Shown piece by piece: positions 6,530 through 29,297 of a DNA stretch of 54,602 nt. The notes under the pieces were generated by a model. That model did not search any database. It was not told the DNA's origin and was given only the letters and a program-made list of their open reading frames with translations. Positions within the stretch are counted from its first letter, which is position 1; every line of letters begins with the position of its first letter. Location of the stretch: NCBI GenBank assembly GCA_964347145.1, contig CAYFXU010000001.1, forward strand, positions 1 to 54,602. Reading direction: 5' to 3'. Made by a program: the position numbers and the translations under genes. The stretch comes from an uncultured Candidatus Bathyarchaeia archaeon. GTDB lineage: Archaea; Thermoproteota; Bathyarchaeia; Bathyarchaeales; Bathyarchaeaceae.

Positions 6530-7177
6530 ATGGACAAAATCCATATCCTCAATTTCTTTGAACCACAATTAGAAACCCCCATCTTTGTAGAAGGACTTCC
6601 CGGATTTGGAAACGTGGGAAAAATTGCGGCACAGTCCCTCATCGAGTCTACCAAAGCCAAAGTTTTCGCAGAATTGTACTCACCTTCTTTCCCAGACTAC
6701 GTAATTGTGGACGCAGATGGAACATGTCGTCCACCCCACTATGAATTCCACACAGCCTCAACAAAAAAGAATCAGTACATCATCCTGACAGGAGATTCAC
6801 AACCCTCGCTGGAGGACCTATTAGCTCACTACCATCTGTGCGACCAAATCTTAGATTTTGCGGAGAAATACGGATGCAAATTCATAGTTACAATAGGTGG
6901 CGTACCAATACCCAGCTCGGGAGGCGAAATTTACGTAGCCGCAACCTCTGAAAAACTTGCTTTGGAAACCGTGGATAAAGATTCCCTTATCTATGGCAAG
7001 GGGAGGATCATGGGCGCAACAGGTCTATTGTTGGGACTCGCAAAAAAGCGAGGGTGGGAAGGCATATGCTTGTTGGGCGCAACACCGGGAATCAGATCCG
7101 ACAGGAAAGCCGCTCTCTCTGTTTTCAAGTTTCTAATTAAGACTCTAGGAGAGGATGCGAAAGAAACTCTGAGATAA
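6530..7177 (+). CDS. PAC2-family proteasome assembly chaperone-like protein
   Basis: 215 aa. N-terminal FVEGLPGFGNVGKIA is typical of archaeal PAC2 / ATP-grasp-like chaperones. Confidence 0.8.
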   Translation: MDKIHILNFFEPQLETPIFVEGLPGFGNVGKIAAQSLIESTKAKVFAELYSPSFPDYVIVDADGTCRPPHYEFHTASTKKNQYIILTGDSQPSLEDLLAHYHLCDQILDFAEKYGCKFIVTIGGVPIPSSGGEIYVAATSEKLALETVDKDSLIYGKGRIMGATGLLLGLAKKRGWEGICLLGATPGIRSDRKAALSVFKFLIKTLGEDAKETLR

Positions 7178-7250
7178 TGGAGCGAAAGCGTTAAGAGAGA
7201 AACGTAACGTATTCATCTGCAAAATCTGGGTTACGCTTGAAGGGATAATC

Positions 7251-7484
7251 ATGACGTTCCTTCGATCGATAAAGAAGGGGCAAAAAAGGTTTGCAAAGGC
7301 GTTGTTAATGCTGTTTGCAGCCTTCCTAATCTTCGGAGGACCCACATACCTCATCTACATCCTTGACAAATTGGATCTTCCTAGACTCGTCATACTCCCT
7401 ATCGGTCTAGTCGCCTTCGTAGCAGGTCTTATTCTCTTTACGTATTTATCAAAAGAGGATACAAAGACTGAAACTTCTAGCTAA
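7251..7484 (+). CDS. Small two-TM membrane protein (hypothetical)
   Basis: 77 aa with two hydrophobic helices (ALLMLFAAFLIFGG, VILPIGLVAFVAGLILF) and a purine-rich stretch upstream of the ATG. Confidence 0.45.
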   Translation: MTFLRSIKKGQKRFAKALLMLFAAFLIFGGPTYLIYILDKLDLPRLVILPIGLVAFVAGLILFTYLSKEDTKTETSS

Positions 7485-7696
7485 GGATCCTCCCTTTCCT
7501 TCATGAAATCTCGCGCGCGCACTGAACTCAAACCTTTCCCGCGTCATTTGGTTGGTTAATTGGAAGACCAGCCTTACTTTTTCCCGCGCGCGCTCTTGGC
7601 TTACTGTATAATTTACTGGCGCGGAGACCTACGAGTTCAAAATCGTTTGGGAGTCTGTGCGTACCATCCATAGTATTTTTATGATCGTAGTAATAG

Positions 7697-7766
7697 AAAT
7701 TGATAGCAAAATGTATAAATAGTATTATTTCTTTCATAGAAAACTCTGATAAGCTTCACCCAAGTG
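7697..7766 (+). promoter_or_regulatory. Conserved promoter/leader element, copy 1 (upstream of plus-strand hdr operon)
   Basis: 64/70 nt identical to the reverse complement of 21030..21099. Contains TATAAAT at 7714-7720. Confidence 0.8.
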
Positions 7767-7797
7767 TTGTTCGGGCTTTGAAAGAGGTAAGGTTTAT

Positions 7798-8250
7798 TTG
7801 AATGAAATAAATGAGGATCAGAAAACCGATGATTTCTATCTTTGTTACCAGTGTGGAACTTGTAGTGGGGGGTGCCCGGTCACTAGGCTTATACCTGAAT
7901 ACAATGTAAGAAAGATACTCAAACACAGAAAGGAAAACAGGACAGATGTTAACAACAGATTTCTCTGGTACTGCTTGACTTGCTATATATGTTACGAACG
8001 ATGTCCTCAAGATGTCAAGCCAATTGAGGTCATACACTCAATTACGAATTTTATGTCAAAAAATGGATTTGCTCCTTCATCTTTGAAGGAAGGCAATAAA
8101 AAAATTCTGGCCGTAGGTCGTAGCAGTGACATCACCAAATTTACTGAACAAAAAAGAAGGAGGTTAGGGCTGCCAGATTTGAAAAAAGATGTTTCAAAGG
8201 ACTTCAAGGAAATCGCTAAAATAACAGGATTGATGGAGTTGGTCCAATGA
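7798..8250 (+). CDS. hdrC: HdrC-like 2x[4Fe-4S] ferredoxin subunit
   Basis: CYQCGTCSGGCP and CLTCYICYERCP motifs. TTG start. 4-nt overlap with the following hdrB. Confidence 0.85.
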   Translation: MNEINEDQKTDDFYLCYQCGTCSGGCPVTRLIPEYNVRKILKHRKENRTDVNNRFLWYCLTCYICYERCPQDVKPIEVIHSITNFMSKNGFAPSSLKEGNKKILAVGRSSDITKFTEQKRRRLGLPDLKKDVSKDFKEIAKITGLMELVQ

Positions 8251-9122
8251 ACCTTGCCTTTTTTCTAGGGTGCAATATTCCAACCCAAGTTTACAATTAT
8301 GAGGCTTCTGTCAGGAAAATTTCCGAAGCTTTCAAGATCAAACTCGTAGACGTCCCGGATTTCGGTTGTTGTGGCGAACTTACTGAAGCCATGGATCATT
8401 ATACATCCCTCGTCTTCTCTGCGAGGAATATCGCCTTGGCAGAGAAGGAAGGTCTAGATCTCTTAACATTATGTAACGGCTGTTTCTCTTCGTTGAGTAA
8501 GGCAATTCTCGCGCTAAGGGATTCTCACCGAAGAAGTGAAGTCAACGAAACTCTGAAAAAAATAGGCCTGTCCTACCAGGGAAAATCAAAGGTGTTTCAC
8601 TTTCATCAACTGATGTACGACATTGTTGGCCCTTCAAAGATCAAGGAAAAATTAGTCTTGGACTTTAATGGCGTCTCCGTATCCTGTCACAATGGCTGCC
8701 ACATCCTCAGACCAAGCGATGTTCTCAGGTTCGATGATCCTGAAAATCCGAGAAAGCTTGAAGAACTTGTAGCATTAACTGGAGCCCAAATTGTTAAGCC
8801 CGTGGGTAACGAACAGTGTTGCGGATCGGTTCTGTCACTTTGTGATTTGGATGCTGCCCAATCATTGGCAATAGAATCTATTGAAAGAAAAGGTGAAGTC
8901 GATGCGATAGTAGTGGGGTGCCCATTTTGTTTCAAACAATTCGATATGGGGCAAGTTGTCGCCAGAAAGAAATTCAATAAGGAATTGAACATTCCGGTAC
9001 TCTTCTACGCCGAACTTTTGGGGTTGGCTCTTGGTTTTGAAGCAAAGGATCTTGGGCTTGACGCTGTCCATAAGATACGAACGGAAGAGTTCTTGAAAAA
9101 GTCAGGGGTTTCCAATGGCTAG
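8247..9122 (+). CDS. hdrB: HdrB-like CCG-domain subunit
   Basis: Two CCG motifs (DFGCCGE, EQCCGSV) plus conserved Cys pairs (CNGC, CPFC). 291 aa. Confidence 0.9.
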   Translation: MNLAFFLGCNIPTQVYNYEASVRKISEAFKIKLVDVPDFGCCGELTEAMDHYTSLVFSARNIALAEKEGLDLLTLCNGCFSSLSKAILALRDSHRRSEVNETLKKIGLSYQGKSKVFHFHQLMYDIVGPSKIKEKLVLDFNGVSVSCHNGCHILRPSDVLRFDDPENPRKLEELVALTGAQIVKPVGNEQCCGSVLSLCDLDAAQSLAIESIERKGEVDAIVVGCPFCFKQFDMGQVVARKKFNKELNIPVLFYAELLGLALGFEAKDLGLDAVHKIRTEEFLKKSGVSNG

Positions 9123-10143
9123 CGTGTTGGTAGTCGGCGGCGGCATCGCTGGAATGCACTGTTCGCTAGACTTGGCCAATATGGGCCATCGCGTTTATTT
9201 GATGGAAAAGGAAGGAGAAATAGGAGGCAATCTGAAGAATCTCTATGAAGTCTTTCCCACAAATGAGAAAGCAGAAAAGTTTCTCAGTAACTTCAAAGAA
9301 AAGGCAAAAACACAAAAGAACATATCAGTCCTAACGAACTCAACTCTCACTGCGTTTGAAGAAAAGATCGATGCTTTCAAAGTTACAATTAATAACTCCG
9401 GAAAGAGTGACACCTTCAATGTCGATGCAGTAGTTCTTGCAACGGGCTTCGTCCCCTATGACCCAAGCGAAAAGACAGAATACGGATACAATAGGTACAA
9501 GGATGTTGTGACTTCAATAGACTTAGAAAGAATGATGAAAGAAGGAAAGTTGGTAAGACGGTCGAACTCTGAGATACCAAGATCTGTAACATTTGTTCAA
9601 TGCGTTGGATTTAGAGACGCCAAGGCATATAGATACTGTTCCAATTTCTGTTGCACGTCAACTGTGAAGAATGCACTAATTATCAAAAGAGAATATCCCG
9701 CCGTAGACGTAAGTGTCATGTACATGGATATCAGAACCCCATACATCTATGAGAATCTATACTTGGATGCTAGAAACATCGGCGTGAAGTTTGTCAGGGG
9801 CAGACCCGCTGAGATTTTTGAAAAGTCCAACAAATTGGTTCTCAATTTCGAGGACACTTTAACCGGTGACACGCGCAGTATCGAATCTGAGTTGGTTGTT
9901 CTTTCCATTGGGGGAATTCCCACTCCAGAAACAAAGGAGCTAAGTCAAATGATGAAGGCATCATTGAGTGATACGGGATTTTTCAAGGTTCACAATGAAC
10001 CTTCCGGAACGAATGCAAATCGAATTTTTGTTGCTGGAGCCGCGTGTGGTCCAAAGGATATCGATTATTCTCTGTCACAGGCAGGTGCTGTCGCGGCTCA
10101 AATAAACAAACTTTGGGGGGGAAAACATGTTGCTGGTAAATAA
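9115..10143 (+). CDS. hdrA: Short HdrA-like FAD/[4Fe-4S] flavoprotein (thioredoxin-reductase-fold core only)
   Basis: VLVVGGGIAGMHCSLDLA Rossmann motif; QCVGFRD...YCSNFCC cluster motif; GAACGPKDI. Lacks the HdrA N-domain, both ferredoxin domains and the TFPTNDCxxC motif (has VFPTNEKAEKF instead). Confidence 0.85.
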   Translation: MASVLVVGGGIAGMHCSLDLANMGHRVYLMEKEGEIGGNLKNLYEVFPTNEKAEKFLSNFKEKAKTQKNISVLTNSTLTAFEEKIDAFKVTINNSGKSDTFNVDAVVLATGFVPYDPSEKTEYGYNRYKDVVTSIDLERMMKEGKLVRRSNSEIPRSVTFVQCVGFRDAKAYRYCSNFCCTSTVKNALIIKREYPAVDVSVMYMDIRTPYIYENLYLDARNIGVKFVRGRPAEIFEKSNKLVLNFEDTLTGDTRSIESELVVLSIGGIPTPETKELSQMMKASLSDTGFFKVHNEPSGTNANRIFVAGAACGPKDIDYSLSQAGAVAAQINKLWGGKHVAGK

Positions 10144-11197
10144 ATGTTACCAATGTGGGTTATGTACTGGAATTTGCCCAAAAAGGCGGATTTCCACTTA
10201 TTCACCTCGCTTCAGGATTAACAAGTTTTTGCTGCAGAATGAGAGAAAGGTCTCGTGGGAATGTCTTACCTGCGGACTGTGTTCACAGTATTGCCCACAA
10301 GAAGTTGACTATCTCGACTTCGTTCGAGACCTGAGGAAGCAAGAAGTTGATGAAGAGGCGATTGCTCATGAATCAATCTTTTCTTTGATCTGTGAAATCA
10401 TGGCTAAATACCCCGCTGCTCAAGGGGTGCCTACGGACTTCAAAGGCGAGACAGATCAAAACAGTGACGTTGCATATTTCCCGGGCTGTCTCGACTTTTT
10501 TGACTGTTTCTTGGATGTGGGCGTAGATTTTCATGAGATTGGCGAGTCAAGCGTAAGGCTGCTGAATCGGATCGGCATCAAACCCAGAATTCTTTCCCTA
10601 AAATGTTGTGGACACGACGCACTTTGGCAGGGCTCCAGCGCTACCTTCAACGTCCTGAGGAAGTATAACGAAAACAAAATGAAGAACAGTGGCATCAAAA
10701 CTCTCGTCACTTCTTGTGCAGAATGTTTTAGAACATTTTCGAAAGATTACGAACTTGATATAGAGGTAATGCACATCTCCCAAATACTTGAGAAGAATAG
10801 GGATAAATTGGGTATTGAAACTAATGGCACTATAGTTACGTATCACGATCCGTGTAGACTTGGCAGACACATGGATGTATACGATGCGCCAAGAAACGTG
10901 CTGTCGAATGTGAAAGGCCTCACACTTAAAGAGCTTGATTATGCGAGGGAAGATGCCCAATGCTGTGGCGTATCTGCATGGGTTTCATGCAACCAAGAGG
11001 CCAAGTTTCTAGTGGTGGAAAAACTGGAAAGAGCGATGGATACAAATTCAAAAATCCTGGTCACGGCATGCCCTAAGTGTTGTGCACATTTGAATTGTGT
11101 AAAGAATGAGAAGCCGCCGATGAAAGATTTTAGAGTGGATGTTGAAGATCTAACGGTTTTCTTGTCAAAATTGATTGACAAAGGTGAGCACAGATGA
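10127..11197 (+). CDS. HdrD/GlpC-like fusion of an HdrC-type ferredoxin and an HdrB-type CCG domain
   Basis: CYQCGLCTGICP and CLTCGLCSQYCP are followed by CCG motifs (KCCGHD, QCCGVS). Confidence 0.85.
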   Translation: MLLVNKCYQCGLCTGICPKRRISTYSPRFRINKFLLQNERKVSWECLTCGLCSQYCPQEVDYLDFVRDLRKQEVDEEAIAHESIFSLICEIMAKYPAAQGVPTDFKGETDQNSDVAYFPGCLDFFDCFLDVGVDFHEIGESSVRLLNRIGIKPRILSLKCCGHDALWQGSSATFNVLRKYNENKMKNSGIKTLVTSCAECFRTFSKDYELDIEVMHISQILEKNRDKLGIETNGTIVTYHDPCRLGRHMDVYDAPRNVLSNVKGLTLKELDYAREDAQCCGVSAWVSCNQEAKFLVVEKLERAMDTNSKILVTACPKCCAHLNCVKNEKPPMKDFRVDVEDLTVFLSKLIDKGEHR

Positions 11198-11631
11198 CTG
11201 TGAGCGAATTTGAACCGAGAATTGTGGTCTTCGCGTGTAATTGGTGTTCTTACGCGGGAGCGGATTTAGCGGGAGTTAGTAGAATTCAATATCCTCCGAC
11301 GGTAAGGATAATACGGGTGATGTGCTCAAGTAGAGTTGATCCAGCCTTCATTTTGAAGGCTTTTCTCAGAGGGGCAGACGGAGTTCTAGTTGCGGGCTGC
11401 CATCTTGGTGACTGCCATTATATTGAGGGCAACTACAATACCGAAAAGAGGATAAAGGAAACGATGAAAGCCCTAGCATACGTGGGGTTTGAAATCAAAA
11501 GACTGAGATTGGAATGGATATCTGCTTCTGAAGGACCGAAGTTTGCGAGCGTAATCAGAGAATTCACAGTCGAGGTGAAAGAGTTGGGACCTAACCCTAT
11601 GCGGATAAAGGGAGATAATATGAATGGGTAG
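11194..11631 (+). CDS. mvhD: MvhD-type (methyl-viologen-reducing hydrogenase delta) [2Fe-2S] subunit
   Basis: FACNWCSYAGADLAG ... RVMCSSRVD ... GADGVLVAGCHLGDCHY. Confidence 0.9.
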   Translation: MTVSEFEPRIVVFACNWCSYAGADLAGVSRIQYPPTVRIIRVMCSSRVDPAFILKAFLRGADGVLVAGCHLGDCHYIEGNYNTEKRIKETMKALAYVGFEIKRLRLEWISASEGPKFASVIREFTVEVKELGPNPMRIKGDNMNG

Positions 11632-12646
11632 CGTATTGGTGGTTGGTTCTGGGGTTGCCGGTATCCAAGCTTCACTTGACCTCGCAGATTTTGGTTACCG
11701 TGTTTTTCTGGTCGAGAGAGAGCACGAACTTGGAGGAAACCTTAGGAACCTGAGTGACCTCTTCTCGACGGGTGAGAAATCATCTGATTTGCTTTCGAGT
11801 CTCCTAGGCAAGATTGAGAAAAAGAAGAACATAATGGTCATGAAAAACTCTGAAGTTTTAGATATTACGGGAGAATTTCCAGAATTCGAAGTTAAAGTGA
11901 AGAGTTCAAATGAAGAAAATAATTTCATTGTGAATGCTATAATCTTAGCCACTGGATTCAAGCCCTATGATCCCTCACCCCTAAAGCAGTATGGGTATGG
12001 CGAATACCGCGATGTGATAACCTCTTTGGAGCTAGAAGAAATGCTCAAGAAGGGAAGACTTGCGAGACCTTCAGATTCGATGAAACCAAATCGCATATCC
12101 ATAATCCAGTGTGTCGGCTCGAGGGATAGCAACACAAATGCATACTGCTCCTCTTTTTGTTGCATGTATGCCATCAAGTTCGCACAGCAAATCAAGAAAA
12201 TGCATCCAGACGCTGTGATAACCATATTGTATATGGATATAAGAACTCCCTATGAAAGCGAGTTTGACTTTAGTAATGCTAGATTGTTGGGCATTCGGTT
12301 TCTAAGAGGAAGACCCGCCAGAGTTAGGAAAGGAATAGATTCTCTTGTGGTTCAGGTCGAAGATACATTGGAGAATGATTTGGTCTTCCTCGAATCTGAC
12401 ATTGTGGTGCTATCTATAGGGGGAGTTCCTGATCCAGCGACTGCTTTTTTCAAGGACAAGTTAAATCTTGAGTTATCAGATTCAGGCTTTTTCCATGTAG
12501 TGGAAAGACCGGTTAGCACGAACGTAAAAGCTGTTTTTGTTGCCGGTGCCGCAAGCGGGCCAAAAGACATCGCGTACTCGATGGCGCAGGGTAGCTGTGC
12601 AGCCGCTAAGGTTGACATAATAATGAAATCCCCAGAGATCACGTAA
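11624..12646 (+). CDS. hdrA: Second short HdrA-like FAD/[4Fe-4S] flavoprotein
   Basis: VLVVGSGVAGIQASLDLA; QCVGSRD...YCSSFCC; GAASGPKDI. DLFSTGEKSSDL replaces the TFPTNDC motif. Paralog of 9115..10143. Confidence 0.85.
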   Translation: MGSVLVVGSGVAGIQASLDLADFGYRVFLVEREHELGGNLRNLSDLFSTGEKSSDLLSSLLGKIEKKKNIMVMKNSEVLDITGEFPEFEVKVKSSNEENNFIVNAIILATGFKPYDPSPLKQYGYGEYRDVITSLELEEMLKKGRLARPSDSMKPNRISIIQCVGSRDSNTNAYCSSFCCMYAIKFAQQIKKMHPDAVITILYMDIRTPYESEFDFSNARLLGIRFLRGRPARVRKGIDSLVVQVEDTLENDLVFLESDIVVLSIGGVPDPATAFFKDKLNLELSDSGFFHVVERPVSTNVKAVFVAGAASGPKDIAYSMAQGSCAAAKVDIIMKSPEIT

Positions 12647-12665: not shown

Positions 12666-15600
12666 CTATACAAGCGTTTTTGATTCTACCACGATTGGTG
12701 TACTGAGTAAGTCCTTTGGCTCTTGAGGTTTTGTTATGGCCGCTTCAAGGCTTGCCTCAATTTGCTGTTTTGAAAAGTGTTGATGAGTTATTGCTCCGAC
12801 GGGGCATGCTACGGCACATGATCCACAACCCTTGCACGTAATGGGGTTTATATAGGCCTTCCTTGTTTGAAACTTAACCTTCTCTAGGATCATTTCCTCT
12901 GGCTGAAGTTCTATTGCTTTAAAAGGGCATACTTCGACACAAGTACCACAGCCCTTACATTTTTCTTCGTTAACCACGCTTATGGCGCCTTCAGATTCTA
13001 TGTGATCCTTCGATAATATCGTGCAGGCATGTGAAGCTGCTGCGCTCGCTTGAGCTATGCTCTCATATATCATCTTTGGCGAATGGGCGGTTCCGCAAAC
13101 GAATACTCCGTCGGTTGCAAAGTCAACAGGCCTAAGTTTCACGTGAGCCTCCAAAAAGAAGCCGTTAGCATCGAGAGGAACCTTGAACATCTTGCTTAGT
13201 TTTTCATAATCATCTCCCGGAACTATTGCGCTACTTAGAACTATGAGGTCTGGCCTCAATCTGAGATTCAGATTGAACATCGGATCGTACATTTCGACTG
13301 TCAGATTTTTTGGATTGACTGATGGTTTGTTTTCATTTGTGTACCTCAGGAAGACCACTCCGAGGTCTCTCGCTTCTCTATACAATGCTTCCCACAGTCC
13401 ATATGCGCGTATGTCCCGGTAGAGTATGTAGACTTCCGTATCTGGGTTTAACTTCTTAATTCTGATAGCGTTCTTTATTGCTTCTGTACAACAAACTCTG
13501 GAACAGTATGCTCTGTTTTCGTCCCTAGAACCCACACATTGGATCATGACGACAGTCTTTACACCCTTCTTTTCATCCCACATCCATTTTCCAGTTATCA
13601 TGGGCTCCAATATTTTTTGAGTAATAATTTTGTTACTCTTTCCAAAGTGGAAGAGGCCTTTGGGTTCTAGCATCTCCGCCCCAACTGCAATTACGGCGGC
13701 TCCAAAATTTGCTTCTGAAACTTTTCCTTCTGTGTTGATTTTGGCCCTAAAGTTTCCGACAAAACCGTTGACTTCGATGACTTCTGAATTCTTGAATACT
13801 GTGATTTTCGGGTTGTTTTCAACCTTATCTATTATCTCTTCCAGGATTTCGATTGTCTTACTCCCATCTTGTATCTCTTCTATGCTTCGCATAAATCCGC
13901 CAAGTCGATCTCGCTTTTCTACAAGATAGACTTCAAAGCCCTGATCTGCAATGTCCAAGCTCGCTGTCATCCCTGAAATGCCGCCACCGATTACGAGAGC
14001 GTTCTTCTTTACAGGAATTAACTCAGTTTGAAGAGGCTGTAGAAATCTGGCCCTTGCGACAGCCATTCTGAGAAGGTCCTTTGCTTTTTCTGTCGCACCC
14101 TTCTTGTCTCTCATGTGAACCCATGAACATTGCTCCCTGATGTTGCAGAATTCAAAAAGGTATTGGTTCAAACTGGCTTCTCTGCAGGTGTTTCTGAATA
14201 TAGATTCATGAGTTCTCGGCGTGCAGGACGCTACTATGACTCTGTTCAGATCTTTCTCTTTAATGACTTCCTTTATTTTTTGTTGAGTGTCCTGAGAACA
14301 CGTATACAGATTTCTCTCGGCATGAACCACATACGGTAATCCTTTCACGTATTCGACCACTTGGGGAACATCTACAATTCCTCCGATGTTTATGCCGCAG
14401 TGACAGATAAAGACGCCAATTCTAGGTTCTTCTCGAATAGATTTCTCTTTTGGATACTCCTTCTTTGTAATGAGCTGATTCCTCACAGACGATAGAAGCA
14501 CACCTGCCTTTGCTGCTGCTGCGCTCGCCTGTGCTACTGAGTCAGGAATATCCTTGGGTCCTTGAGATGCCCCACAAACATATATTCCTTGAAGGTTAGT
14601 TTCTACGGGACTTGTTAGTTTGGTGTTAACGTATCCGAAATCGTTTAGTTTCAGGTCTATAATTTCCTTAAGCGAGAGCAAAGTGCTGGGTGGTGTTAAT
14701 CCTACAGAGAGGACGACCAGATCTAGGTCCATGCTCTTAAGTTCGTTGGTGACAGGGTCCTCGTAAAAAACTGTTAGGCCCCCTTTGTCTTTGTTGGGAG
14801 ACACTGCTGGAACCTCGCATCTTATGTATTTGATTCCATACTCTGTTGTTGCTCTCTCAGTGAATTCTTCGAATCCTTTTCCAAAAGCGCGCAAGTCTAT
14901 GTAGAAGATTGTTATATCTAGTTCTGGGTCGTGTTCTTTTGCGACTATGGCCTCTTTTGTGGCGTACATGCAGCAGACGGCGGAACACAGTTCCCTACCT
15001 ATGCTGGGGTTCCTCGATCCAACACACTGAATAAACCCGATTTTTCTAGGTCTTCTTCCGTCTGAAGGACGAAGGACAACACCTCCGTAGGGGCCACTGG
15101 CACTTAGAATTCTTTCAAACTCGGCACTTGTGATCACGTTTTGGTAGCGGTATCCATATTCTTTCATGGTCAATGGGTCAAAAAGTTCTGCACCAGTAGC
15201 AAGAATGACTGCTCCAACATTTAGTTCGGTTGGACTGGTCTTCTGGTTGTAGTCTATCGCTTTTCTCTTGCAATTCTTCTCACAAAGTCCGCATCCGATA
15301 CATGCGTTTCTATCGATGGAGTAAACCAGAGGAACTGCTTGGGGGTACATCACCGAGATAGCGCTCTTTTTGTTGAGGTTTCTGTTGAAAGCATCGAGAG
15401 CCCTAACTGGGCACGCTCTTGCGCAGTCTCCACAGCCATTACATTTTTCCGGGTCGACATATCTCGGTTTTTTCAGCAGTTTTACCTTAAAATCTCCTGC
15501 AATGCCACTGAAATCAACGATTTCAGCGTTACCTATTATTTCTATGTTCGGGTGTCTGTATGTGTTAACAAGTTTTGGGGACAAGATGCACATGGCACAG

Positions 15601-15755
15601 TCGTTTGTTGGAAATGTCTTGTCCAGTTGAGGCATTGTTCCTCCTATACTCGGGTTTTTGTCGATAAGGTAAACTTTGAAACCTGAGTCTGCGAGGTCCA
15701 AGGATGCTTGAATCCCGGCTATTCCCCCACCAACGACAAGAACAGAACCTTTCAT
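12666..15755 (-). CDS. hdrA: Double-module HdrA (TrxR-like module with inserted ferredoxin + HdrA N-domain + second TrxR-like module + C-terminal ferredoxin)
   Basis: 1029 aa. Two Rossmann motifs (VVGGGIAGIQASLD; VIGGGISGMTASLD), TFPTNDCAMCIL, two CVGSR...CC motifs, N-domain motif VFICHCGINIGG...CSWVH located mid-protein, and four CxxCxxCxxxCP-type motifs. Confidence 0.9.
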   Translation of the reverse strand: MKGSVLVVGGGIAGIQASLDLADSGFKVYLIDKNPSIGGTMPQLDKTFPTNDCAMCILSPKLVNTYRHPNIEIIGNAEIVDFSGIAGDFKVKLLKKPRYVDPEKCNGCGDCARACPVRALDAFNRNLNKKSAISVMYPQAVPLVYSIDRNACIGCGLCEKNCKRKAIDYNQKTSPTELNVGAVILATGAELFDPLTMKEYGYRYQNVITSAEFERILSASGPYGGVVLRPSDGRRPRKIGFIQCVGSRNPSIGRELCSAVCCMYATKEAIVAKEHDPELDITIFYIDLRAFGKGFEEFTERATTEYGIKYIRCEVPAVSPNKDKGGLTVFYEDPVTNELKSMDLDLVVLSVGLTPPSTLLSLKEIIDLKLNDFGYVNTKLTSPVETNLQGIYVCGASQGPKDIPDSVAQASAAAAKAGVLLSSVRNQLITKKEYPKEKSIREEPRIGVFICHCGINIGGIVDVPQVVEYVKGLPYVVHAERNLYTCSQDTQQKIKEVIKEKDLNRVIVASCTPRTHESIFRNTCREASLNQYLFEFCNIREQCSWVHMRDKKGATEKAKDLLRMAVARARFLQPLQTELIPVKKNALVIGGGISGMTASLDIADQGFEVYLVEKRDRLGGFMRSIEEIQDGSKTIEILEEIIDKVENNPKITVFKNSEVIEVNGFVGNFRAKINTEGKVSEANFGAAVIAVGAEMLEPKGLFHFGKSNKIITQKILEPMITGKWMWDEKKGVKTVVMIQCVGSRDENRAYCSRVCCTEAIKNAIRIKKLNPDTEVYILYRDIRAYGLWEALYREARDLGVVFLRYTNENKPSVNPKNLTVEMYDPMFNLNLRLRPDLIVLSSAIVPGDDYEKLSKMFKVPLDANGFFLEAHVKLRPVDFATDGVFVCGTAHSPKMIYESIAQASAAASHACTILSKDHIESEGAISVVNEEKCKGCGTCVEVCPFKAIELQPEEMILEKVKFQTRKAYINPITCKGCGSCAVACPVGAITHQHFSKQQIEASLEAAITKPQEPKDLLSTPIVVESKTLV
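13084..13133. repeat. 50-nt tract identical to 16878..16927 (paralog gene-conversion candidate)
   Basis: Base-by-base comparison shows tgggcggttccgcaaacgaatactccgtcggttgcaaagtcaacaggcct in both hdrA giants. The flanking bases differ. Confidence 0.9.
14916..14993. repeat. 78-nt tract identical to 18695..18772 (paralog gene-conversion candidate)
   Basis: Base-by-base comparison: the tract runs from atctagttctgggtcg to ggaacacagttc and is identical in both hdrA giants, including all synonymous sites. The immediately flanking bases differ. Confidence 0.9.
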
Positions 15756-15764
15756 GTCAATAAT

Positions 15765-16550
15765 TCACCCTATTAGTTGAAAAATGGGATAATCATCCTT
15801 GAAGCCAACTATATTGACGGATCCTTCATTTTTCAGTTGCATCAAGCAGTCGAAGACTTCTTTTCCTTCAATTCCGAGTTTTTCTGAGAGATCGGCAACT
15901 GAAAGCGGCGTATCCTTGATCAAGCTCAGAACTAGAGATTTCAGATATTTTGTTTCGACAACCTCCCCGACTATCCTTGTCAAGTGATCTGGATCGAGTT
16001 TCTCGCCATACACATTTCCTTCATCTCGGAGTACTTTCTCTTTACCTATCATCCACCTCACCGTGAAGTCTAGAAACTCGTTTTCAGCAGCAACTATCTT
16101 ATCCATGGTGGGAACACCGTCTATGATTTCCTTGGAAATAGGCCCGAGTTTCTTCAGTTCCTCAGTGAACTCGGTGATAGTGTCCGCAAAAAGCTTTCCT
16201 TCTGATGCAGAAATCCATTTGTATTCAAATCGTTGTACAGGAATCTTGCTTCTTTCAATAACCCTCGCGACATGTTTCATCTTCTGCTGCGCCTCCATGT
16301 TACCCGTTATATAGTGACAATCCCCGGGATGACACCCAGCCACCAAGACACCATCGGCTCCTTCGCGAAAGGCCTCAAAAATTAGGAATGGGTCAACCCT
16401 TCCGCTGCACATAACCTTGATTATCCTTATGCTCGTTGGATACTGATACCTCGAGACCCCGGCAAAGTCCGCTCCTGCGTAAGAACACCAGTTACATAAG
16501 AATGCAATTATCAATGGTTCAAAATCTTTTTCATCACTCTCTTCTTTCAT
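15765..16550 (-). CDS. mvhD: MvhD-type subunit with about 120-aa C-terminal extension ending in a winged-helix-like segment
   Basis: FLCNWCSYAGADFAG ... KVMCSGRVD ... GADGVLVAGCHPGDCHY, followed by the extension ...PLSVADLSEKLGIEGKEVFDCLMQLKNEGSV. Confidence 0.9.
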   Translation of the reverse strand: MKEESDEKDFEPLIIAFLCNWCSYAGADFAGVSRYQYPTSIRIIKVMCSGRVDPFLIFEAFREGADGVLVAGCHPGDCHYITGNMEAQQKMKHVARVIERSKIPVQRFEYKWISASEGKLFADTITEFTEELKKLGPISKEIIDGVPTMDKIVAAENEFLDFTVRWMIGKEKVLRDEGNVYGEKLDPDHLTRIVGEVVETKYLKSLVLSLIKDTPLSVADLSEKLGIEGKEVFDCLMQLKNEGSVNIVGFKDDYPIFQLIG

Positions 16551-19500
16551 GAGACCACCTTTGCCGCCCTGATCTGTGATATGATTTGTTGGTCAGTGAA
16601 ATGTGTTACACTGATGGCTTTTTCGGGGCATGACGCGGCACAAACACCGCATCCTTTGCATGCTGCCAAAATGACTTCTGCTTTTCCATCTTCACCAATT
16701 TCGACAGCATTAAATGGGCACAAGAATACGCAAAGTTCACAGCCTACGCATTTTTCTTTATCAGTTACGCGACTTATGATCACTTCACTTTCGATATAAT
16801 CCTTTGAGAGAATTGTTGTAGCTCTTGACGCCGCTGCACTCGCCTGCGCTATGCTCTCGTATATCATCTTTGGATAGTGGGCGGTTCCGCAAACGAATAC
16901 TCCGTCGGTTGCAAAGTCAACAGGCCTGAGCTTCACGTGAGCCTCCAAGAAGAAGCCGTTGGGATCCAAAGGTACCTTAAATAGCCTGCTGATTTTTTCG
17001 TAATCCTTGCGTGGAGTAATTGCACTGCTCAGCACCACGTAATCGGGGTGGAGCACCAACTTTTCCTGCAAAAGCAGCTCATCAACTATGACGGATAGGT
17101 TTTCAGGGTCTACAACTGGTCTATGTTCATCTGTATACCTAACAAAAACTACGCCCATGCTTCTTGCTGTGTTGTAGATGGTCTCCCAGATTCCATAGGC
17201 CCTAACATCTTTGTACAGTATGTACACGTCCGTTTCTGGGCTCATCTTCTTAATGTTTATCGCATTCTTTATCGCTTCACTGCAACACACTCTGGAACAG
17301 TAGGTTCTGCCTTCACTTTCCCTGGAACCAACGCACTGGATCATGACAACGGTCTTTGCGTTGAAACCTTTCTCAAGCATCTGCTCCAAGTCTTTTTGAG
17401 TGATTATACTCCCGTTTTCTCCATAATTGTAGTATCCCGTAGGTTGAAGTACATCGGCTCCGACAGCAATAATGGCGGTTCCGAATTCGATTTCTTTAGA
17501 GCCTTTAGGAGTGGTTATTGAGGCCTTGAAGTTCCCAACATGACCGGCTACTGCCTCCACTTCTGATTCAAAAAACATTTTTATGCGCGGATGGTTCTTC
17601 ACTTTTTGAATACTTTCTCTAAGGATCTCAAATGTCTTGGTTCCATCTTGGATTTGCCATATGTTCTTGACGAACCCTCCCAGTGCCGCACTCTTTTCAA
17701 CCAGGTAAACCTCGAACCCTTGATTCGCTATGTCTAGGCTTGCAGTCATTCCAGATATGCCTCCGCCCAACACCAACGCCTTCTGAGTAACAGGGATCAT
17801 TCGTCTTTGGAGGGGCCTCAACAGTCTTGCCTTGGCAACCGCCATCTCTATTAGATTTTGAGCCTTCTCTGTAGCCCTCTCCTTTTGATTCATGTGTACC
17901 CAAGAGCACTGTTCGCGGATGTTACAGAACTCGAAAAGATATGGGTTTAAACCGGCTTCCTTCACTGTGTTTTGGAAGAGAGGTTCATGAGTTCTGGGAG
18001 TGCACGATGCAACTACGATTCTGTTCAATTCCTTTTGTTCTATGACTTCCTTTATTCTTTCCAGTGTATCTTGTGAGCACGTGTAGAGGTTTTCTTCACA
18101 ATGAATAACGTTCTGCAGTGTGCTAACGTATCTAACCACTTCGGGCACATTTACAACTCCTCCAATGTTAATGCCGCAGTTACAAACAAAGACGCCTATC
18201 TTGGGCTCTTCCTTTATCTGGCGTTCTTTTGGAAATTCCTTTTCGGTGGTTAACCTGTTTCTAGCTGATGGAAACAGAGCCTTTGCCTTTGCAGCAGCTC
18301 CACATGCTTGAGCTACACAATCCGGTATATCTTTCGGACCTTGAGCTGTCCCACAAACATATACGCCTTCGATGTTGGTCTCCATTGGCTTGTCAAGCCT
18401 TGTTTTTACATAACCGTATTGATTCAATTCTAGGTCCAACATCTCGGCAAGCTTTTTGAGCGATTTTGGAGGCCTTAGCCCGACTGACAGGACCACGAGA
18501 TCGAGGTCTACGGTCTTGAATTCGTTGTCTTTGGGATCTTCATAGTAGATCTTGAGCAGATCACTGTTTATGTGTCCTTTCACCTCAACATCTTTACATC
18601 TGACGTACTTGATATTGTATTCATCCTCAGCTCTTTTTGTAAACTCTTCAAACCCTTTCCCATAAGCCCTCAGGTCTATGAAAAATATGTACACATCTAG
18701 TTCTGGGTCGTGTTCTTTTGCGACTATGGCCTCTTTTGTGGCGTACATGCAGCAGACGGCGGAACACAGTTCTCTGCCTATGCTGCGGTCTCTCGACCCA
18801 ACACATTGGATAAACCCGATCTTCTTTGGTTTTGATCCATCTGAAGGCCTGATTATTGATCCCTTTGTAGGTCCACTTGCGCTCAGAAACCTCTCAAACT
18901 CGGTTGATGTGACTACATTCTCATGCTTATAATTCAGCATGGTTTCGGGTGTTGGATCATATGCTTCTGCGCCAGTGGAAACGATTATGCTTCCAACCCT
19001 TAATCTAACTCTTTCGTCTTTTTGAGTGAAGTTCACAGCTTTGGCTTCGCACACTTTCTCACATATTTGACAAACATCTTTGGTAAAATAAAGACAATTT
19101 TCCTTGTCGATCAAGGCGACGAGTGGAACTGCTTGGGGGAAAGGAACTCTTATGCACTTTGTCAGGCCGATGTTCTCGTTCATTGCGTCTGAAATCTTTA
19201 CAGGACATTTAGAAGAACATGTCCCACATCCAGTACACCTTTCCTTGTCCACAAACCTCGTTTTCTTAAGCAATTCGATTTCAAAATCCCCTGCCTTCCC
19301 AGTAACAGAAAGCAATTCGCAGTATGTGAGTAACTCTATGTTTGGATGACGCGAAACCTCAGCCAACTTGGGAGCCAGAATGCAGATCGCACAATCGTTC
19401 GTTGGAAATGTTTTATCGAGTTGGAGCATCCTTCCCCCGATGGTGGGTCTATCCTCAACAAGGTACACCTTAAAACCTGACTCTGCGAGTTCGAGAGCTG

Positions 19501-19573
19501 CATATATTCCTGATATCCCCCCGCCGATTACAGCTACAGCACCCACAGGCTGCACGAGTGTCACCAATCTCAA
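16547..19573 (-). CDS. hdrA: Double-module HdrA, paralog of 12666..15755
   Basis: 1008 aa with the same architecture: VIGGGISGIYAALE, TFPTNDCAICIL, VFVCNCGINIGG...CSWVH, VLGGGISGMTASLD and a C-terminal CVGCELCVFLCP / CKGCGVCAASCP. TTG start; 4-nt overlap with mvhD. Confidence 0.9.
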   Translation of the reverse strand: MRLVTLVQPVGAVAVIGGGISGIYAALELAESGFKVYLVEDRPTIGGRMLQLDKTFPTNDCAICILAPKLAEVSRHPNIELLTYCELLSVTGKAGDFEIELLKKTRFVDKERCTGCGTCSSKCPVKISDAMNENIGLTKCIRVPFPQAVPLVALIDKENCLYFTKDVCQICEKVCEAKAVNFTQKDERVRLRVGSIIVSTGAEAYDPTPETMLNYKHENVVTSTEFERFLSASGPTKGSIIRPSDGSKPKKIGFIQCVGSRDRSIGRELCSAVCCMYATKEAIVAKEHDPELDVYIFFIDLRAYGKGFEEFTKRAEDEYNIKYVRCKDVEVKGHINSDLLKIYYEDPKDNEFKTVDLDLVVLSVGLRPPKSLKKLAEMLDLELNQYGYVKTRLDKPMETNIEGVYVCGTAQGPKDIPDCVAQACGAAAKAKALFPSARNRLTTEKEFPKERQIKEEPKIGVFVCNCGINIGGVVNVPEVVRYVSTLQNVIHCEENLYTCSQDTLERIKEVIEQKELNRIVVASCTPRTHEPLFQNTVKEAGLNPYLFEFCNIREQCSWVHMNQKERATEKAQNLIEMAVAKARLLRPLQRRMIPVTQKALVLGGGISGMTASLDIANQGFEVYLVEKSAALGGFVKNIWQIQDGTKTFEILRESIQKVKNHPRIKMFFESEVEAVAGHVGNFKASITTPKGSKEIEFGTAIIAVGADVLQPTGYYNYGENGSIITQKDLEQMLEKGFNAKTVVMIQCVGSRESEGRTYCSRVCCSEAIKNAINIKKMSPETDVYILYKDVRAYGIWETIYNTARSMGVVFVRYTDEHRPVVDPENLSVIVDELLLQEKLVLHPDYVVLSSAITPRKDYEKISRLFKVPLDPNGFFLEAHVKLRPVDFATDGVFVCGTAHYPKMIYESIAQASAAASRATTILSKDYIESEVIISRVTDKEKCVGCELCVFLCPFNAVEIGEDGKAEVILAACKGCGVCAASCPEKAISVTHFTDQQIISQIRAAKVVS
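16878..16927. repeat. Second copy of the 50-nt identical tract (see 13084..13133)
   Basis: Identical string by direct comparison. Confidence 0.9.
18695..18772. repeat. Second copy of the 78-nt identical tract (see 14916..14993)
   Basis: Identical string by direct comparison. Encodes ELCSAVCCMYATKEAIVAKEHDPELD in both proteins. Confidence 0.9.
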
Positions 19574-19574: not shown

Positions 19575-20441
19575 CTACTTGACGAAGTCGATTACGGGTT
19601 TCGCGGAAATCATGTTTTTGTGAAGACCAAGTTCCTTTGGAGGAATCCCGAATGAGAGCCCAATAAGTTGCGTGAAATAAAGAATGGGAATCTCACGTTT
19701 GCTATCTATTTTCGCCATGACTTTGTGTTGTAAGGTCTCAAGGGCCATATGGCAAAGCGGGCACGTAACAGTGATGCACTGTGCCTCACGTTCCTTCGCC
19801 TCGGCGATGATCTCTTTTGTCAATTCGAAAGGCGTTTTCTGATCTGTCATTAGCAAACCTCCGCCGCAACATTTTGTTTTGCCAAAGAACTCTAGGGGTT
19901 CTCCACCTAAGTTTAAAACGAGTCTGTCAAGTAGCTCCGGGTCGTCTGGATCATCAAAATTGAGGATTTTGGATGGTCTAACTATCAGGCAACCGTAGTA
20001 GGAAACAGTTTTTAACTCTTTAAGCGGTTTTTGTACGCGTTCTTTTATCTTCTGCAGGCCTATGTCACTCAAAAACAAATCTAGAAGATGCTTTATTTCT
20101 AACTCACGAAAATTGTAGTTTAAGAGTTGATTTATCCTTCTCCTCAATTCTCCATTTTGAGAGAGCCTCCACTGGACTTTGACAAGATTATTTAAACATG
20201 CATTGCATGTCACTACCAGCTTATCTGATTCTTCCGACGCAATCTTCAAATTTCTGGCCGGCAAAGCCAACGAGAGCAGGGGATTCAGTGAACTAACTTC
20301 TAGTGCACCGCAACAATTCCAGTCTTCAATTTCTACGAGTTCTATGTCGAGCCTCTCGCAAACGGCGTTTGCAGATAGTTGGTATTCTTTTGCAGAAGAT
20401 TCAAGTGAACATCCTGGGTAATAAGAAATTCTCACCTTCAC
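19575..20441 (-). CDS. hdrB: HdrB CCG-domain subunit
   Basis: DWNCCGALE and KTKCCGGGL CCG motifs. 288 aa. 4-nt overlap with hdrC. Confidence 0.9.
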   Translation of the reverse strand: MKVRISYYPGCSLESSAKEYQLSANAVCERLDIELVEIEDWNCCGALEVSSLNPLLSLALPARNLKIASEESDKLVVTCNACLNNLVKVQWRLSQNGELRRRINQLLNYNFRELEIKHLLDLFLSDIGLQKIKERVQKPLKELKTVSYYGCLIVRPSKILNFDDPDDPELLDRLVLNLGGEPLEFFGKTKCCGGGLLMTDQKTPFELTKEIIAEAKEREAQCITVTCPLCHMALETLQHKVMAKIDSKREIPILYFTQLIGLSFGIPPKELGLHKNMISAKPVIDFVK

Positions 20442-21022
20442 ATCACCTGAGTCTCTTTGAATAGCTTGTCTATCTCCTTGAGGTCTTTGACTTTTTTCGG
20501 AAACAGGCTTAGTTTTCTCTTGCGAACCATCTTTAATCCCAGTGGAAAATACGACAGCATGAACTTCAGGTCTTTCCTTTTCAGTATATATTTCGTCATC
20601 AGCCCAGTCTCGAATACTCTTCCGTAGTGTCTTATGCTGTCTGCGAAGGTTGAATCAAACAAGAACGTTGGGCCTTTGATCTCGATGTTTCCTTTTTCCA
20701 GTTCTCTTATTGCAAGAATCTTTAGTGCTTCAACAACCTCAGCAAACTTCACATTTTGAGGACACCGTTCATAGCAGGTGTGACAGTGTACGCACTTCCA
20801 TATGGTTTCACTGGAAAGTAGTTCTTTCTTCATCCCGTATAGAATCATTCTGATTATCTTTCTTGGGTTGTAATCATTGTCGATTCTCCTTACGGGGCAT
20901 GAAACTGCACAAATGCCACAGTGAAAACATTGCTTCACGTTCTCACCACCTGGTTGGCTAGAAACTTCATATTTGAAATTCGGATCGAGATCACCAAAAT
21001 CAACTGTCTGTTTCTTTTCCAT
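20438..21022 (-). CDS. hdrC: HdrC 2x[4Fe-4S] subunit
   Basis: CFHCGICAVSCP and CVHCHTCYERCP. ATG start 8 nt downstream of the conserved promoter/leader element. Confidence 0.9.
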   Translation of the reverse strand: MEKKQTVDFGDLDPNFKYEVSSQPGGENVKQCFHCGICAVSCPVRRIDNDYNPRKIIRMILYGMKKELLSSETIWKCVHCHTCYERCPQNVKFAEVVEALKILAIRELEKGNIEIKGPTFLFDSTFADSIRHYGRVFETGLMTKYILKRKDLKFMLSYFPLGLKMVRKRKLSLFPKKVKDLKEIDKLFKETQVM

Positions 21023-21029: not shown

Positions 21030-21099
21030 CACTTTGATGAAGCTTATTAGAGGTTTCTATGAAATAAATAATACTATTTATACATTTTGCTGTCAATTT
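21030..21099 (-). promoter_or_regulatory. Conserved promoter/leader element, copy 2 (upstream of minus-strand hdr operon)
   Basis: Its reverse complement is 64/70 nt identical to 7697..7766 and contains TATAAAT. Confidence 0.8.
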
Positions 21100-21238
21100 T
21101 TATGATGAAAACCATAAATATTCGTGCCCAACAATGGTCACAATAAGCGCCGCGCGTGCTTCCGTTTGATTTCATAGAGAAAGAGAGCATATATAATTGA
21201 AAACGCGGATTCCCTATTGGGCGCACGAAGAACAGTAG

Positions 21239-23327: not shown

Positions 23328-24284
23328 TCATAAGCCCGCCATGTAGCCACTGACAACGTATGCTATGCACAACAGTAGACCCGTGAACAGGTGCACGAGA
23401 ACCGTACCAGCATTCGCCGGAATAAGCTTTCGCGGATCTCCATAATTTCTCCTGGCCACATACACTGCTCTTATGGCCAGTGGAGCCGTTAGAAATGAAA
23501 GTAAAGTGAGCACCGGCATCAGCGACAAGGAGACCCCCAACAGTATTACAGCGTAGGTGAAAAACATGAGCAGGCCATAGACATCCGCAGCCCGTTTTCT
23601 TCCAATTCTAGTTACCAAAGTCTTTTTTCCAGCCTTGGCGTCTGCGTAATAATCTGGAATTTCGTTTATCCAGAGCACTTCGAGAATCAATATTCCTAGA
23701 GGAATTGATGCAACTATTGGTTCTAAAGCTATAATTTGTGTTTGCACATAATAGCTTCCTGCGACTGTGAGTGGTCCGCAGTTAAGACCTACAATGAACT
23801 CGCCAATCCCACGTGGGGCCAACTGAGTCGTATAGAAATATCCTGAAAAGACTCCTGTAAGGCCGAGAACGACAATAACCCACCCTCGAGTCACAGCAAG
23901 GATTACTCCAATAAGGCCAGCGAAAATGAAGGAAATTAGAGAAGCGATGTACACTTTTCTGGGATTTAGGATACCTCTAGGAAGTAAGCCACTTCCGCCA
24001 CTGAATGGTGAACTAAAATCGGTGTCGACGAAATCGCATCCACTCTTGTAGTCAAAATAATCATTTGCAAGATTTGTTCCAGCATTTACACACACCGCGC
24101 CTATCAAACTCAAGACGAAATACGTCAGGTTAAAAGTTCTGAACGAAAACCAAGCTACTGCGGTGCCGAGGATCACTGGAATCAAAACGGCTGTAAAAAA
24201 GGGTGCTCTCAACTCCTTAATCCATACCAGAAAGGTTGCTGTCTTGGTTTGAGTTTTCCCTGACAGTTTTCGTCCCTCTAACAT
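23328..24284 (-). CDS. menA: UbiA-superfamily prenyltransferase, MenA-like (1,4-dihydroxy-2-naphthoate polyprenyltransferase type)
   Basis: 318 aa, polytopic. First Asp-rich motif NLANDYFDYKSG and second motif NEIPDYYADAKAGKKTLVTRIG are characteristic of the MenA subgroup. Confidence 0.75.
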   Translation of the reverse strand: MLEGRKLSGKTQTKTATFLVWIKELRAPFFTAVLIPVILGTAVAWFSFRTFNLTYFVLSLIGAVCVNAGTNLANDYFDYKSGCDFVDTDFSSPFSGGSGLLPRGILNPRKVYIASLISFIFAGLIGVILAVTRGWVIVVLGLTGVFSGYFYTTQLAPRGIGEFIVGLNCGPLTVAGSYYVQTQIIALEPIVASIPLGILILEVLWINEIPDYYADAKAGKKTLVTRIGRKRAADVYGLLMFFTYAVILLGVSLSLMPVLTLLSFLTAPLAIRAVYVARRNYGDPRKLIPANAGTVLVHLFTGLLLCIAYVVSGYMAGL

Positions 24285-24320
24285 GACACCTTTTTGATCT
24301 ATTGTGGTGAATCAAAACAT

Positions 24321-24343
24321 ATTAAATGTTATTAAATGTTATT
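24321..24343. repeat. Tandem 10-mer ATTAAATGTT x2.3 in the menA/PKD-gene divergent spacer
   Basis: attaaatgtt attaaatgtt att. On the minus strand this duplicates a TTTAAT TATA-like box 40-55 nt upstream of the menA ATG. Confidence 0.6.
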
Positions 24344-24632
24344 GCAAAAAAGCTTTCTACCAAGAATTAGACACTGACGGTTCTTTTCCATTTGCGTGTA
24401 TTGGCTCATACGTGCACGCAATAAAAAGTTGCGGCATGACCAGCACGAGATCTCGTTTCTTCTTTCCACCCCACTGCGGATGCAAAAGAGAAAGAACAGC
24501 TGCTGAGAAAAAAACAAATAGCTGCGCCAGAAGATTGAATAGATGATACTTCTATAACTTAACCTCACAAGATTTAATATATAAAATGGACCTCTAGGAT
24601 TTTAGAATGGAAGAGGTCAGGAGATTAGCAAT

Positions 24633-26525: not shown

Positions 26526-26548
26526 AATTTCGTGTGCATGCGCCAAAG

Positions 26549-28781: not shown

Positions 28782-28813
28782 TGTCCCGTCCTCCTCGTCT
28801 ATGTGATTCGACT

Positions 28814-29296: not shown

Positions 29297-29297
29297 C

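Follow-up and report, generated by a model that had tools for sequence, protein, structure and literature searches.

Evidence for recurrent short-patch gene conversion between tandem fused hdrA paralogs in a Bathyarchaeia heterodisulfide reductase operon

The DNA analyzed here, referred to throughout as the window, is a stretch of 54,602 nucleotides (nt) from an uncultured Candidatus Bathyarchaeia archaeon (NCBI GenBank assembly GCA_964347145.1, contig CAYFXU010000001.1, positions 1 to 54,602 of the forward strand), and it carries two tandem genes, hdrA paralogs A and B, for fused, two-module forms of the heterodisulfide reductase protein HdrA. The present state of this pair very probably reflects an ancient duplication followed by recurrent short-patch gene conversion at three hotspots, designated T1, T2 and T3. 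The two genes and their extended identity tracts in the window, the latter delimited by maximal-segment analysis, are as follows.

12666..15755, minus strand: hdrA paralog A, a fused two-module 'type II' HdrA of 1029 amino acids (aa), identified by Pfam and by phmmer against the PDB.
16547..19573, minus strand: hdrA paralog B, a fused two-module 'type II' HdrA of 1008 aa counted from a TTG codon, identified by Pfam; translation may in fact begin a few codons further downstream.
14916..15041, minus strand: presumed conversion tract T1 in A (aa 239-280, IGFIQCVGSRNPSIGRELCSAVCCMYATKEAIVAKEHDPELD), with an exact core at 14916-14993.
18695..18820, minus strand: presumed conversion tract T1 in B, identical to A at 118/126 nt, with an exact core at 18695-18772.
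13039..13166, minus strand: presumed conversion tract T2 in A (aa 864-906, NGFFLEAHVKLRPVDFATDGVFVCGTAH...AQASA), with an exact core at 13084-13133.
16833..16960, minus strand: presumed conversion tract T2 in B, identical to A at 118/128 nt, with an exact core at 16878-16927.

Over their whole length A and B share 62% aa and 64% nt identity. A first-pass annotation of the sequence had reported perfectly identical tracts of 78 and 50 nt between them, the shorter one embedded in about 115 nt of near-identity, and had read the mosaic as gene conversion. Both tracts were recovered exactly (14916-14993 = 18695-18772 and 13084-13133 = 16878-16927), and the near-identity around the shorter one was measured as the 118/128 nt of T2. 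The sliding-window comparison proposed at that stage found divergence to be far from uniform, with identities of 0.90-1.00 in two islands vs 0.45-0.70 elsewhere, and the extended tracts grade into flanks of intermediate identity. The same contrast is seen at the codon level. Gene-wide, A and B use the same codon at 46% of aa-identical degenerate codons; synonymous codon identity is about 24/27 in the tracts and falls to roughly 40% at most other positions. T1 holds the longest run of identical codons (25), whereas in 20,000 permutations of the synonymous runs between the window's A and B the longest run averaged 7.7 and never exceeded 21 (P < 5e-5). Synonymous divergence (dS, NG86) of A from B has reached saturation across the 872 codons outside the tracts, whereas it amounts to 0.26 in T1 and 0.44 in T2. 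Protein constraint alone is insufficient to account for the tracts, because the GGGISGMTASLDIA segment is equally strongly conserved (aa identity 0.83) and yet only 5/24 of its synonymous codons are identical.

The tracts had also been described as cofactor-proximal, and mapping through alignments to solved HdrA structures bears this out. T1 spans the cysteines of the module-1 iron-sulfur (FeS) cluster motif CxGxRx(n)CSxxCC together with Lys267, the K409 equivalent according to the alignment to 5odc, and T3 covers the counterpart of this motif in module 2, with Lys761. T2 corresponds to the motif for binding flavin adenine dinucleotide (FAD) that closes the thioredoxin reductase (TrxR)-like domain of module 2 (…RPVDFATDGVFVCGTAH…). 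Self-BLASTN of the genes returned only colinear A-B similarity and no nucleotide similarity between module 1 and module 2 that would indicate conversion within a gene. BLASTN likewise found no identity islands in the other paralog pairs of the window, namely the short hdrA genes (9115-10143/11624-12646), the mvhD genes (11194-11631/15765-16550) and the hdrB and hdrC copies; the mvhD pair, at a uniform 69%, had the highest similarity among them. A tRNA, an Rfam family or a mobile element was considered as the source of the repeats; none was found in the window, and the tracts lie in frame within conserved motifs.

The age of the duplication can be judged from related operons. In the window the gene order hdrC-hdrB-hdrA(B)-mvhD-hdrA(A) forms one minus-strand operon, and the same order is present in six further Bathyarchaeia loci (L007, L001, L087, L003, L088 and L005, also written L7, L1, L87, L3, L88 and L5, and compared below with the window, W) and partly in L090. 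The assemblies compared were NCBI, JGI and ENA-derived, with contig names in SPAdes (NODE_), MEGAHIT (k141_) and JGI styles. The closest public genome is an uncultured Bathyarchaeia metagenome-assembled genome (MAG), to which protein A is 88% aa identical; over its full length, protein A has 55-56% identity to proteins of Methanoperedens and other Bathyarchaeia. Whole-gene nt identity is 0.68-0.85 among A orthologs and 0.63-0.88 among B orthologs, vs 0.59-0.64 for any A-B pair, and in the tree the A clade and the B clade, the latter including orthologs P0010, P0011, P0013 and P0016, are sisters relative to the homologs of Methanoperedens and other Bathyarchaeia. The A/B duplication therefore predates all seven genomes, and the conserved synteny excludes an independent duplication in each of them.

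Despite whole-gene orthology, each of the seven genomes has its own A-B identity islands. The T2 island is found in 7/7 genomes, where the identical runs span 41-138 nt. Four genomes (W, L007, L001 and L088) have T1, and four (L087, L003, L088 and L005) have T3 (alignment columns ~741-775, module-2 CVGSR...CSRVCC), which reaches about 190 nt in L005. L003, L088 and L005 also have a minor fourth island, located in the N-domain (LFEFCNIREQCSWVH). Runs of identical synonymous codons are 18-52 long, with permutation P <= 1e-4 in each of the seven genomes. In all seven, a concerted topology is restricted to the tracts: identity matrices and quartet counts show paralogs within a genome to be more alike than orthologs inside the tracts and the reverse outside them. 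Counts of quartet informative sites, given as orthology (AA|BB) : concerted (AB|AB) : third pattern, illustrate this. For W vs L007, its closest relative, they were 606:28:25 in the rest of the gene and 0:7:1 in T2, and for W vs L001 they were 455:47:43 in the rest of the gene, 1:16:0 in T1 and 0:11:0 in T2. Further comparisons gave 0:16:0 for W vs L003 in T2, 0:16:0 for L003 vs L005 in T3 and 0:20:0 for L088 vs L005 in T3. Some synonymous and aa changes are common to A and B of one lineage only, the aa changes including GVYVCGTCH in L001, MIQCAGSRE in L088, and DGIF in L088 and L005. The earlier proposal of gene conversion is thus strongly supported, by the non-uniform divergence and by the tract-limited concerted topology in the orthologous operons of six other genomes.

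The timing of the most recent events can be bracketed by ortholog divergence. Between the window and its closest relative, ortholog dS is 0.74-0.79 in the rest of the gene and 0.51-1.24 in the tracts. The last conversions in the window are younger than the split from that relative, because A-B dS in the tracts is below the ortholog value of 0.74-0.79. The direction of conversion is only weakly hinted at, for example by A-type residues in clade-2 B copies at T3.

In archaea, homologous recombination is RadA-dependent. The duplication, older than the split of at least the seven sampled genomes, was followed by divergence of the copies until their synonymous sites were saturated. On the most probable reading, short-patch, non-reciprocal homologous recombination between these direct repeats, 3.8 kb apart, has since overwritten some 50-190 nt of one copy with the other, repeatedly, with recurrent hotspots at T1 (the module-1 CSxxCC/Lys motif), T3 (the homologous motif of module 2) and T2 (the module-2 FAD motif). 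The agent would be RadA-type recombination acting on misaligned direct repeats or on sister chromosome copies and leaving short heteroduplex patches. Initiation would be favored where protein constraint has preserved enough nucleotide identity for a heteroduplex to form, and since each conversion would restore perfect identity, the next event at the same place would be favored in turn. Tract ends would be set by heteroduplex rejection in the diverged flanks, and selection would presumably remove conversions that reach segments where A and B have specialized.

Selection might also act in a more positive sense. It is conceivable, though rather doubtful, that the islands are more than a by-product of residual homology and are themselves kept by selection, with conversion holding the flavin/FeS bifurcation core and the docking surfaces for the single HdrBC and MvhD identical in paralogs that are otherwise sub-functionalizing. 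If so, A and B would be interchangeable on one set of partners, or would form one A-B super-complex, and the locus would be a case of 'gene balance by concerted evolution' at the resolution of single motifs in an uncultured archaeal lineage.

Recombination between direct repeats can also leave a different trace, and gene conversion gains a possible companion in an eighth locus, L089 (GCA_012975005.1, contig JABAOC010000756.1, 6001-9033), where a single type II hdrA follows hdrC-hdrB, without mvhD. At 394 diagnostic sites, this gene follows B until about column 315 and A for the whole remainder from about column 320, with a single B::A switch immediately 3′ of the T1 zone (hotspot 1). Such a hybrid is the product expected of unequal crossing-over between direct repeats.

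Several points weigh against the recombination account. The L089 hybrid is on one contig only and could alternatively be an assembly mis-join across an identical tract; a crossover and a mis-join both imply an identity tract at that place. The tract boundaries and the 100% identity rest on assemblies, in which bubble popping by the assembler could have made near-identical stretches fully identical. Several 'genomes' behind the comparison are MAGs or mixed assemblies, with three distinct loci in GCA_012975005.1, and the pairing of A with B is based on physical linkage within contigs, not on bins. Finally, the recombination machinery and the cause of the hotspots are inferred, and the direction of transfer is weakly indicated.

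Among the competing explanations, the one that survives best, though it is very unlikely, holds that the islands stem from independent recent partial duplications, or from replacement by relatives' DNA, instead of conversion by the resident paralog. Recombination with foreign DNA is common in archaea, and tandem type II hdrA genes are found in many phyla, some with very long identical blocks (738 nt in L021). However, operon order and both orthology groups are kept in all seven genomes, and a tract invariably has its closest match in the resident paralog and not in an ortholog from another sampled genome. For foreign DNA, the same donor would need to strike both copies each time, which is less parsimonious than conversion between residents.

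An assembly or polishing artefact, in which real paralogs differ in the tracts and were made identical by repeat collapse, bubble popping or mis-mapped polishing, is less probable still. The window and all comparison loci are metagenome assemblies, and the exact protein A is absent from the public gene index, hence there is no independent re-assembly of the same sequence. Nevertheless, identity cannot arise by collapse from sequence that is 64% identical, and at most a near-identity would have been sharpened. Furthermore, seven or eight loci, produced by different projects with different assemblers, have such islands, each locus with its own tract sequence shared by A and B, and the graded flanks and the shared non-synonymous changes, which are in frame, also speak against such an origin.

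Constraint at the nucleotide level without recombination, whether imposed by very strong codon bias or by an RNA or regulatory element within the coding sequence, deserves equally little credence: the motifs encoded by the tracts are indeed the best conserved ones of the protein, and identity at T2 is raised in all genomes, but codon constraint, which the first-pass annotation had named as the competing cause of the identity, is excluded by the free variation of the same tracts at synonymous sites between genomes (W_A and L1_A have identities of 0.79 in the T1 window and 0.82 in the T2 window, and dS between the W and L1 orthologs is saturated over the 42 codons of extended T1), other equally conserved motifs are non-identical at synonymous sites, and no Rfam family matched anywhere in the window.

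The proteins in which gene conversion appears to have operated have a well-defined architecture. The four-part domain description given earlier was borne out by Pfam, by alignments to 5odc and 8rvu, and by colinearity of module 2 with the short HdrAs of the window. The parts of protein A are listed below.

14436..15755, minus strand: module 1 (aa 1-440), a TrxR-like FAD domain with TFPTNDC (Cys197), an inserted 2x[4Fe-4S] ferredoxin and CxGxRx(n)CSxxCC, from alignment to 5odc 146-509.
14031..14435, minus strand: N-terminal-type HdrA FeS domain, located mid-protein (aa 441-575), from alignment to 5odc 2-172 and 8rvu 10-150.
13011..14030, minus strand: module 2 TrxR-like FAD domain (aa 576-915), from alignment to 8rvu_a 150-244 and 325-570.
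12669..13010, minus strand: C-terminal 2x[4Fe-4S] ferredoxin domain and tail (aa 916-1029), from Pfam Fer4 at 927-989 and 8rvu_a 570-657.

In a phmmer search of the PDB, protein A matched 5odc_A with E = 9e-207 in three permuted stretches. Residues 5-367 align to HdrA 5odc 146-509, i.e., the TrxR domain and inserted ferredoxin with the TFPTNDC/Cys197 motif; the N-terminal FeS domain (5odc 2-172) is matched by residues 442-612; and residues 583-1004 align to HdrA without the inserted ferredoxin and without TFPTxDC (Cys197) while keeping the C-terminal ferredoxin. When residues 442-1029 were searched alone, the match to HdrA was end-to-end minus the inserted ferredoxin, with a non-conserved site in place of the Cys197 motif. 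Each protein has two FAD modules, as Pyr_redox_2, NAD_binding_8 and FAD_oxidored each match twice in Pfam, and GxGxxG-type motifs are found in A at aa 7-14 (VVGGGIAG) and aa 588-595 (VIGGGISG). The modules are complementary. Module 1 has the Cys197 motif (DKTFPTNDCAMC, aligned to 5odc 186-197) and is without an N-terminal FeS domain, whereas module 2 begins with the N-domain (VFICHCGINIGG...CSWVH) and has GGFMRSIEEIQDG at the TFPTxDC site of HdrA. Fer4 matches occur only at about aa 99-162 and 927-989, such that the inserted ferredoxin belongs to module 1 and the C-terminal one to module 2; 8rvu residues 245-324 are skipped in the module-2 alignment. In HdrA, K409 and E356 are bifurcation-site residues, with K409 contacting the N5 of FAD (PMC12054007). 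Equivalents are found in both modules (K267/E214 and K761/E717) and are invariant in a 40-sequence alignment. An AlphaFold2 model of A had a mean pLDDT of 80.8 and a pTM of 0.84, consistent with a defined arrangement of the modules, and its best Foldseek match was 5odc_A, with a TM-score of 0.73 normalized to the target. Judged from sequence, a single polypeptide could take the place of an asymmetric HdrA dimer and provide two FAD sites.

The first-pass annotation was correct in calling each protein effectively a covalent HdrA heterodimer, although that architecture is already published, as HdrA3/4 or 'type II HdrA', and this half of the finding is not new. The relevant passage of Chadwick et al. 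2022 (PMC9012536) regards the fused HdrA (HdrA3/HdrA4) as its own heterodimeric partner, and a 2025 survey named the same fused form 'type II HdrA' (PMC12054007). A survey of the distribution of double-module HdrA, also suggested earlier, returned at least 586 stretches in GTDB species representatives, with archaeal and bacterial hosts that include Bathyarchaeia, Methanoperedens, Promethearchaeota, Thermoplasmata, Desulfobacterota, Chloroflexota, Bacillota and others. A and B share with described type II HdrAs (Chadwick 2022; PMC12054007; the MetFV-HdrABC-MvhD of Moorella thermoacetica) two TrxR/FAD modules in about 1000 aa, the complementary N-terminal FeS domain/Cys197 and inserted/C-terminal ferredoxins, the Lys and Glu in both modules, and clustering with hdrBC and mvhD, and there is no architectural difference. 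What sets this locus apart from other type II HdrAs is the presence of two tandem genes around an extended mvhD with a single hdrBC in common. As to module order, the Cys197 module comes first here, whereas the passage on this form in Chadwick et al. (PMC9012536) puts the N-domain module first. The canonical HdrA of MvhAGD-HdrABC (5ODC, 8RVU) has the same fold, cofactor motifs and partner subunits as protein A, but it is a symmetric homodimer of about 650 aa, unlike the fused A and B.

Concerted evolution of tandem hdrA genes is not universal. Tandem type II hdrA genes were found in 15/79 surveyed GTDB loci, with mosaic identity in some archaeal tandem pairs (L021, L019 and L016) and not in most bacterial pairs. 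In L021 (Promethearchaeota MAG DZ2M.341, 5950-11960), two adjacent type II hdrA genes with 80% overall identity agree at every position of a 738-nt block (protein A positions ~457-700) and of several shorter blocks. In this Asgard archaeon, the pattern would reflect either a far larger conversion or a partial duplication of recent date. Smaller islands are present in the pairs of Methanomassiliicoccales L019 and Bathyarchaeota L016.

The tufA/tufB genes and the archaeal chaperonin (thermosome) subunit genes undergo gene conversion. The hdrA pair has in common with these recurrent concerted evolution in components of essential complexes and a conflict between orthology and within-genome similarity; tuf copies, however, are non-adjacent and homogenized over nearly their whole length, whereas hdrA A and B appear sub-functionalized and share only cofactor motifs. 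A closer parallel is mtrA-1/mtrA-2 of methanogens, where gene conversion is domain-limited and long-lasting (Wang et al. 2015, PMC4632066). Both cases involve tandem paralogs in an archaeal energy-metabolism operon, an ancient duplication, partial homogenization and recurrence in many lineages. However, mtrA homogenizes a whole domain in methanogens, whereas in the Bathyarchaeia pair only patches of 50-190 nt at three or four motifs are affected and the remainder is saturated at synonymous sites. Long-lasting recurrent concerted evolution in prokaryotes has been described for tuf, mtrA-1/mtrA-2 and a few dozen others (PMC4632066; PMC6053082, where tuf is listed among concerted-evolution genes), and hdrA is not among the 26 genes (7 archaeal) of the prokaryote-wide survey in PMC6053082. 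A literature search combining gene conversion and heterodisulfide reductase returned 11 papers that contain both terms; judged by titles and abstracts, neither term appears there in any of them.

The hdrA pair is thus a new, unusually fine-grained example of a known phenomenon, found in a class of proteins described before, and does not constitute a novel type of system. With it, hdrA would join the few prokaryotic genes known for concerted evolution that is both recurrent and ancient, here at the resolution of single cofactor motifs, and the pair provides direct sequence evidence of active, long-lasting short-patch homologous recombination in Bathyarchaeia, a lineage without genetics. Caution is also indicated for HdrA phylogeny, as trees built on type II core motifs can mix paralog histories, and hybrids such as the L089 gene can pass for separate HdrA classes. 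For the biochemistry of type II HdrA, the mosaic may serve as a guide by marking interchangeable segments (the FAD/FeS core) vs diverged ones (the ferredoxin domains and the N- and C-terminal parts).

The remaining genes of the fused-HdrA operon are the following.

20438..21022, minus strand: hdrC, 194 aa, 2x[4Fe-4S] ferredoxin-type, the first gene of the operon, from Pfam Fer4_8/Fer4_17.
19575..20441, minus strand: hdrB, 288 aa, with two CCG domains, from Pfam (PF02754 twice, E = 3e-24).
15765..16550, minus strand: mvhD-like gene, 261 aa, between hdrA B and A (PF02662, E = 6e-52).

The position of hdrC is constant across all orthologous operons. In the mvhD-like protein, the FlpD domain covers residues 14-136 and is followed by a helical C-terminal extension of about 125 aa that has no Pfam match and possibly a winged-helix-like end; the extended length (261-270 aa) and the position of the gene are kept in six related operons and in the partial locus L090. 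Of partners of the MvhAGD-HdrABC type, the window has only mvhD, hdrB and hdrC, and no [NiFe]-hydrogenase domains (MvhAG) were found among the window open reading frames scanned, which included every one of at least 300 aa.

A second, Hdr-like cluster adjoins the fused-HdrA operon divergently, on the plus strand.

7798-8250, plus strand: hdrC-like gene.
8247-9122, plus strand: hdrB-like gene.
9115-10143, plus strand: short hdrA.
10127-11197, plus strand: fused hdrCB.
11194-11631, plus strand: mvhD.
11624-12646, plus strand: short hdrA.

Upstream of the hdrC of each of these two clusters lies one arm of a 92-nt inverted repeat with 85% identity (7675-7766, plus strand; 21030-21121, minus strand), the core of which, about 75 nt, is nearly identical and AT-rich (…AAAATTGAYAGCAAAATGTATAAATAGTATTATTT…). 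Going by sequence, it looks like a shared archaeal promoter/operator, which would imply co-regulation. Alternatively, the repeat may have arisen by a further recombination event between the clusters. A third Hdr cluster (38843-43843, minus strand) encodes an HdrA of 801 aa fused C-terminally to MvhD ('type Ia'), hdrC, hdrB and an FrhB/FdhB-like F420-binding subunit, and resembles the F420H2-dependent HdrA2B2C2 of Methanosarcina; with it, the window encodes three different soluble Hdr systems.

Adjoining the Hdr operons, the region 23328-35901 encodes CcmB, an ABC ATPase and two Cytochrom_C_asm proteins (cytochrome c biogenesis), along with a 500-aa multihaem cytochrome (32307-33809), PKD/CARDB surface proteins, a UbiA prenyltransferase, a DUF420 protein and a polyprenyl synthetase. 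The Ccm/UbiA neighborhood is also present in L001 and L089, and this gene set suggests extracellular or membrane electron transfer in this Bathyarchaeia clade. Genes of the beta-oxidation type (thiolase, thioesterase, two enoyl-CoA hydratases and 3-hydroxyacyl-CoA dehydrogenase) lie on either side of the redox clusters, at 114-1322 and 44272-50798, and may supply the Hdr systems with reducing equivalents. A direct repeat at 25148-25282 vs 25414-25549, with 74% identity over 136 nt, corresponds to the tandem PKD domains of a 630-aa surface protein and represents ordinary domain repetition.

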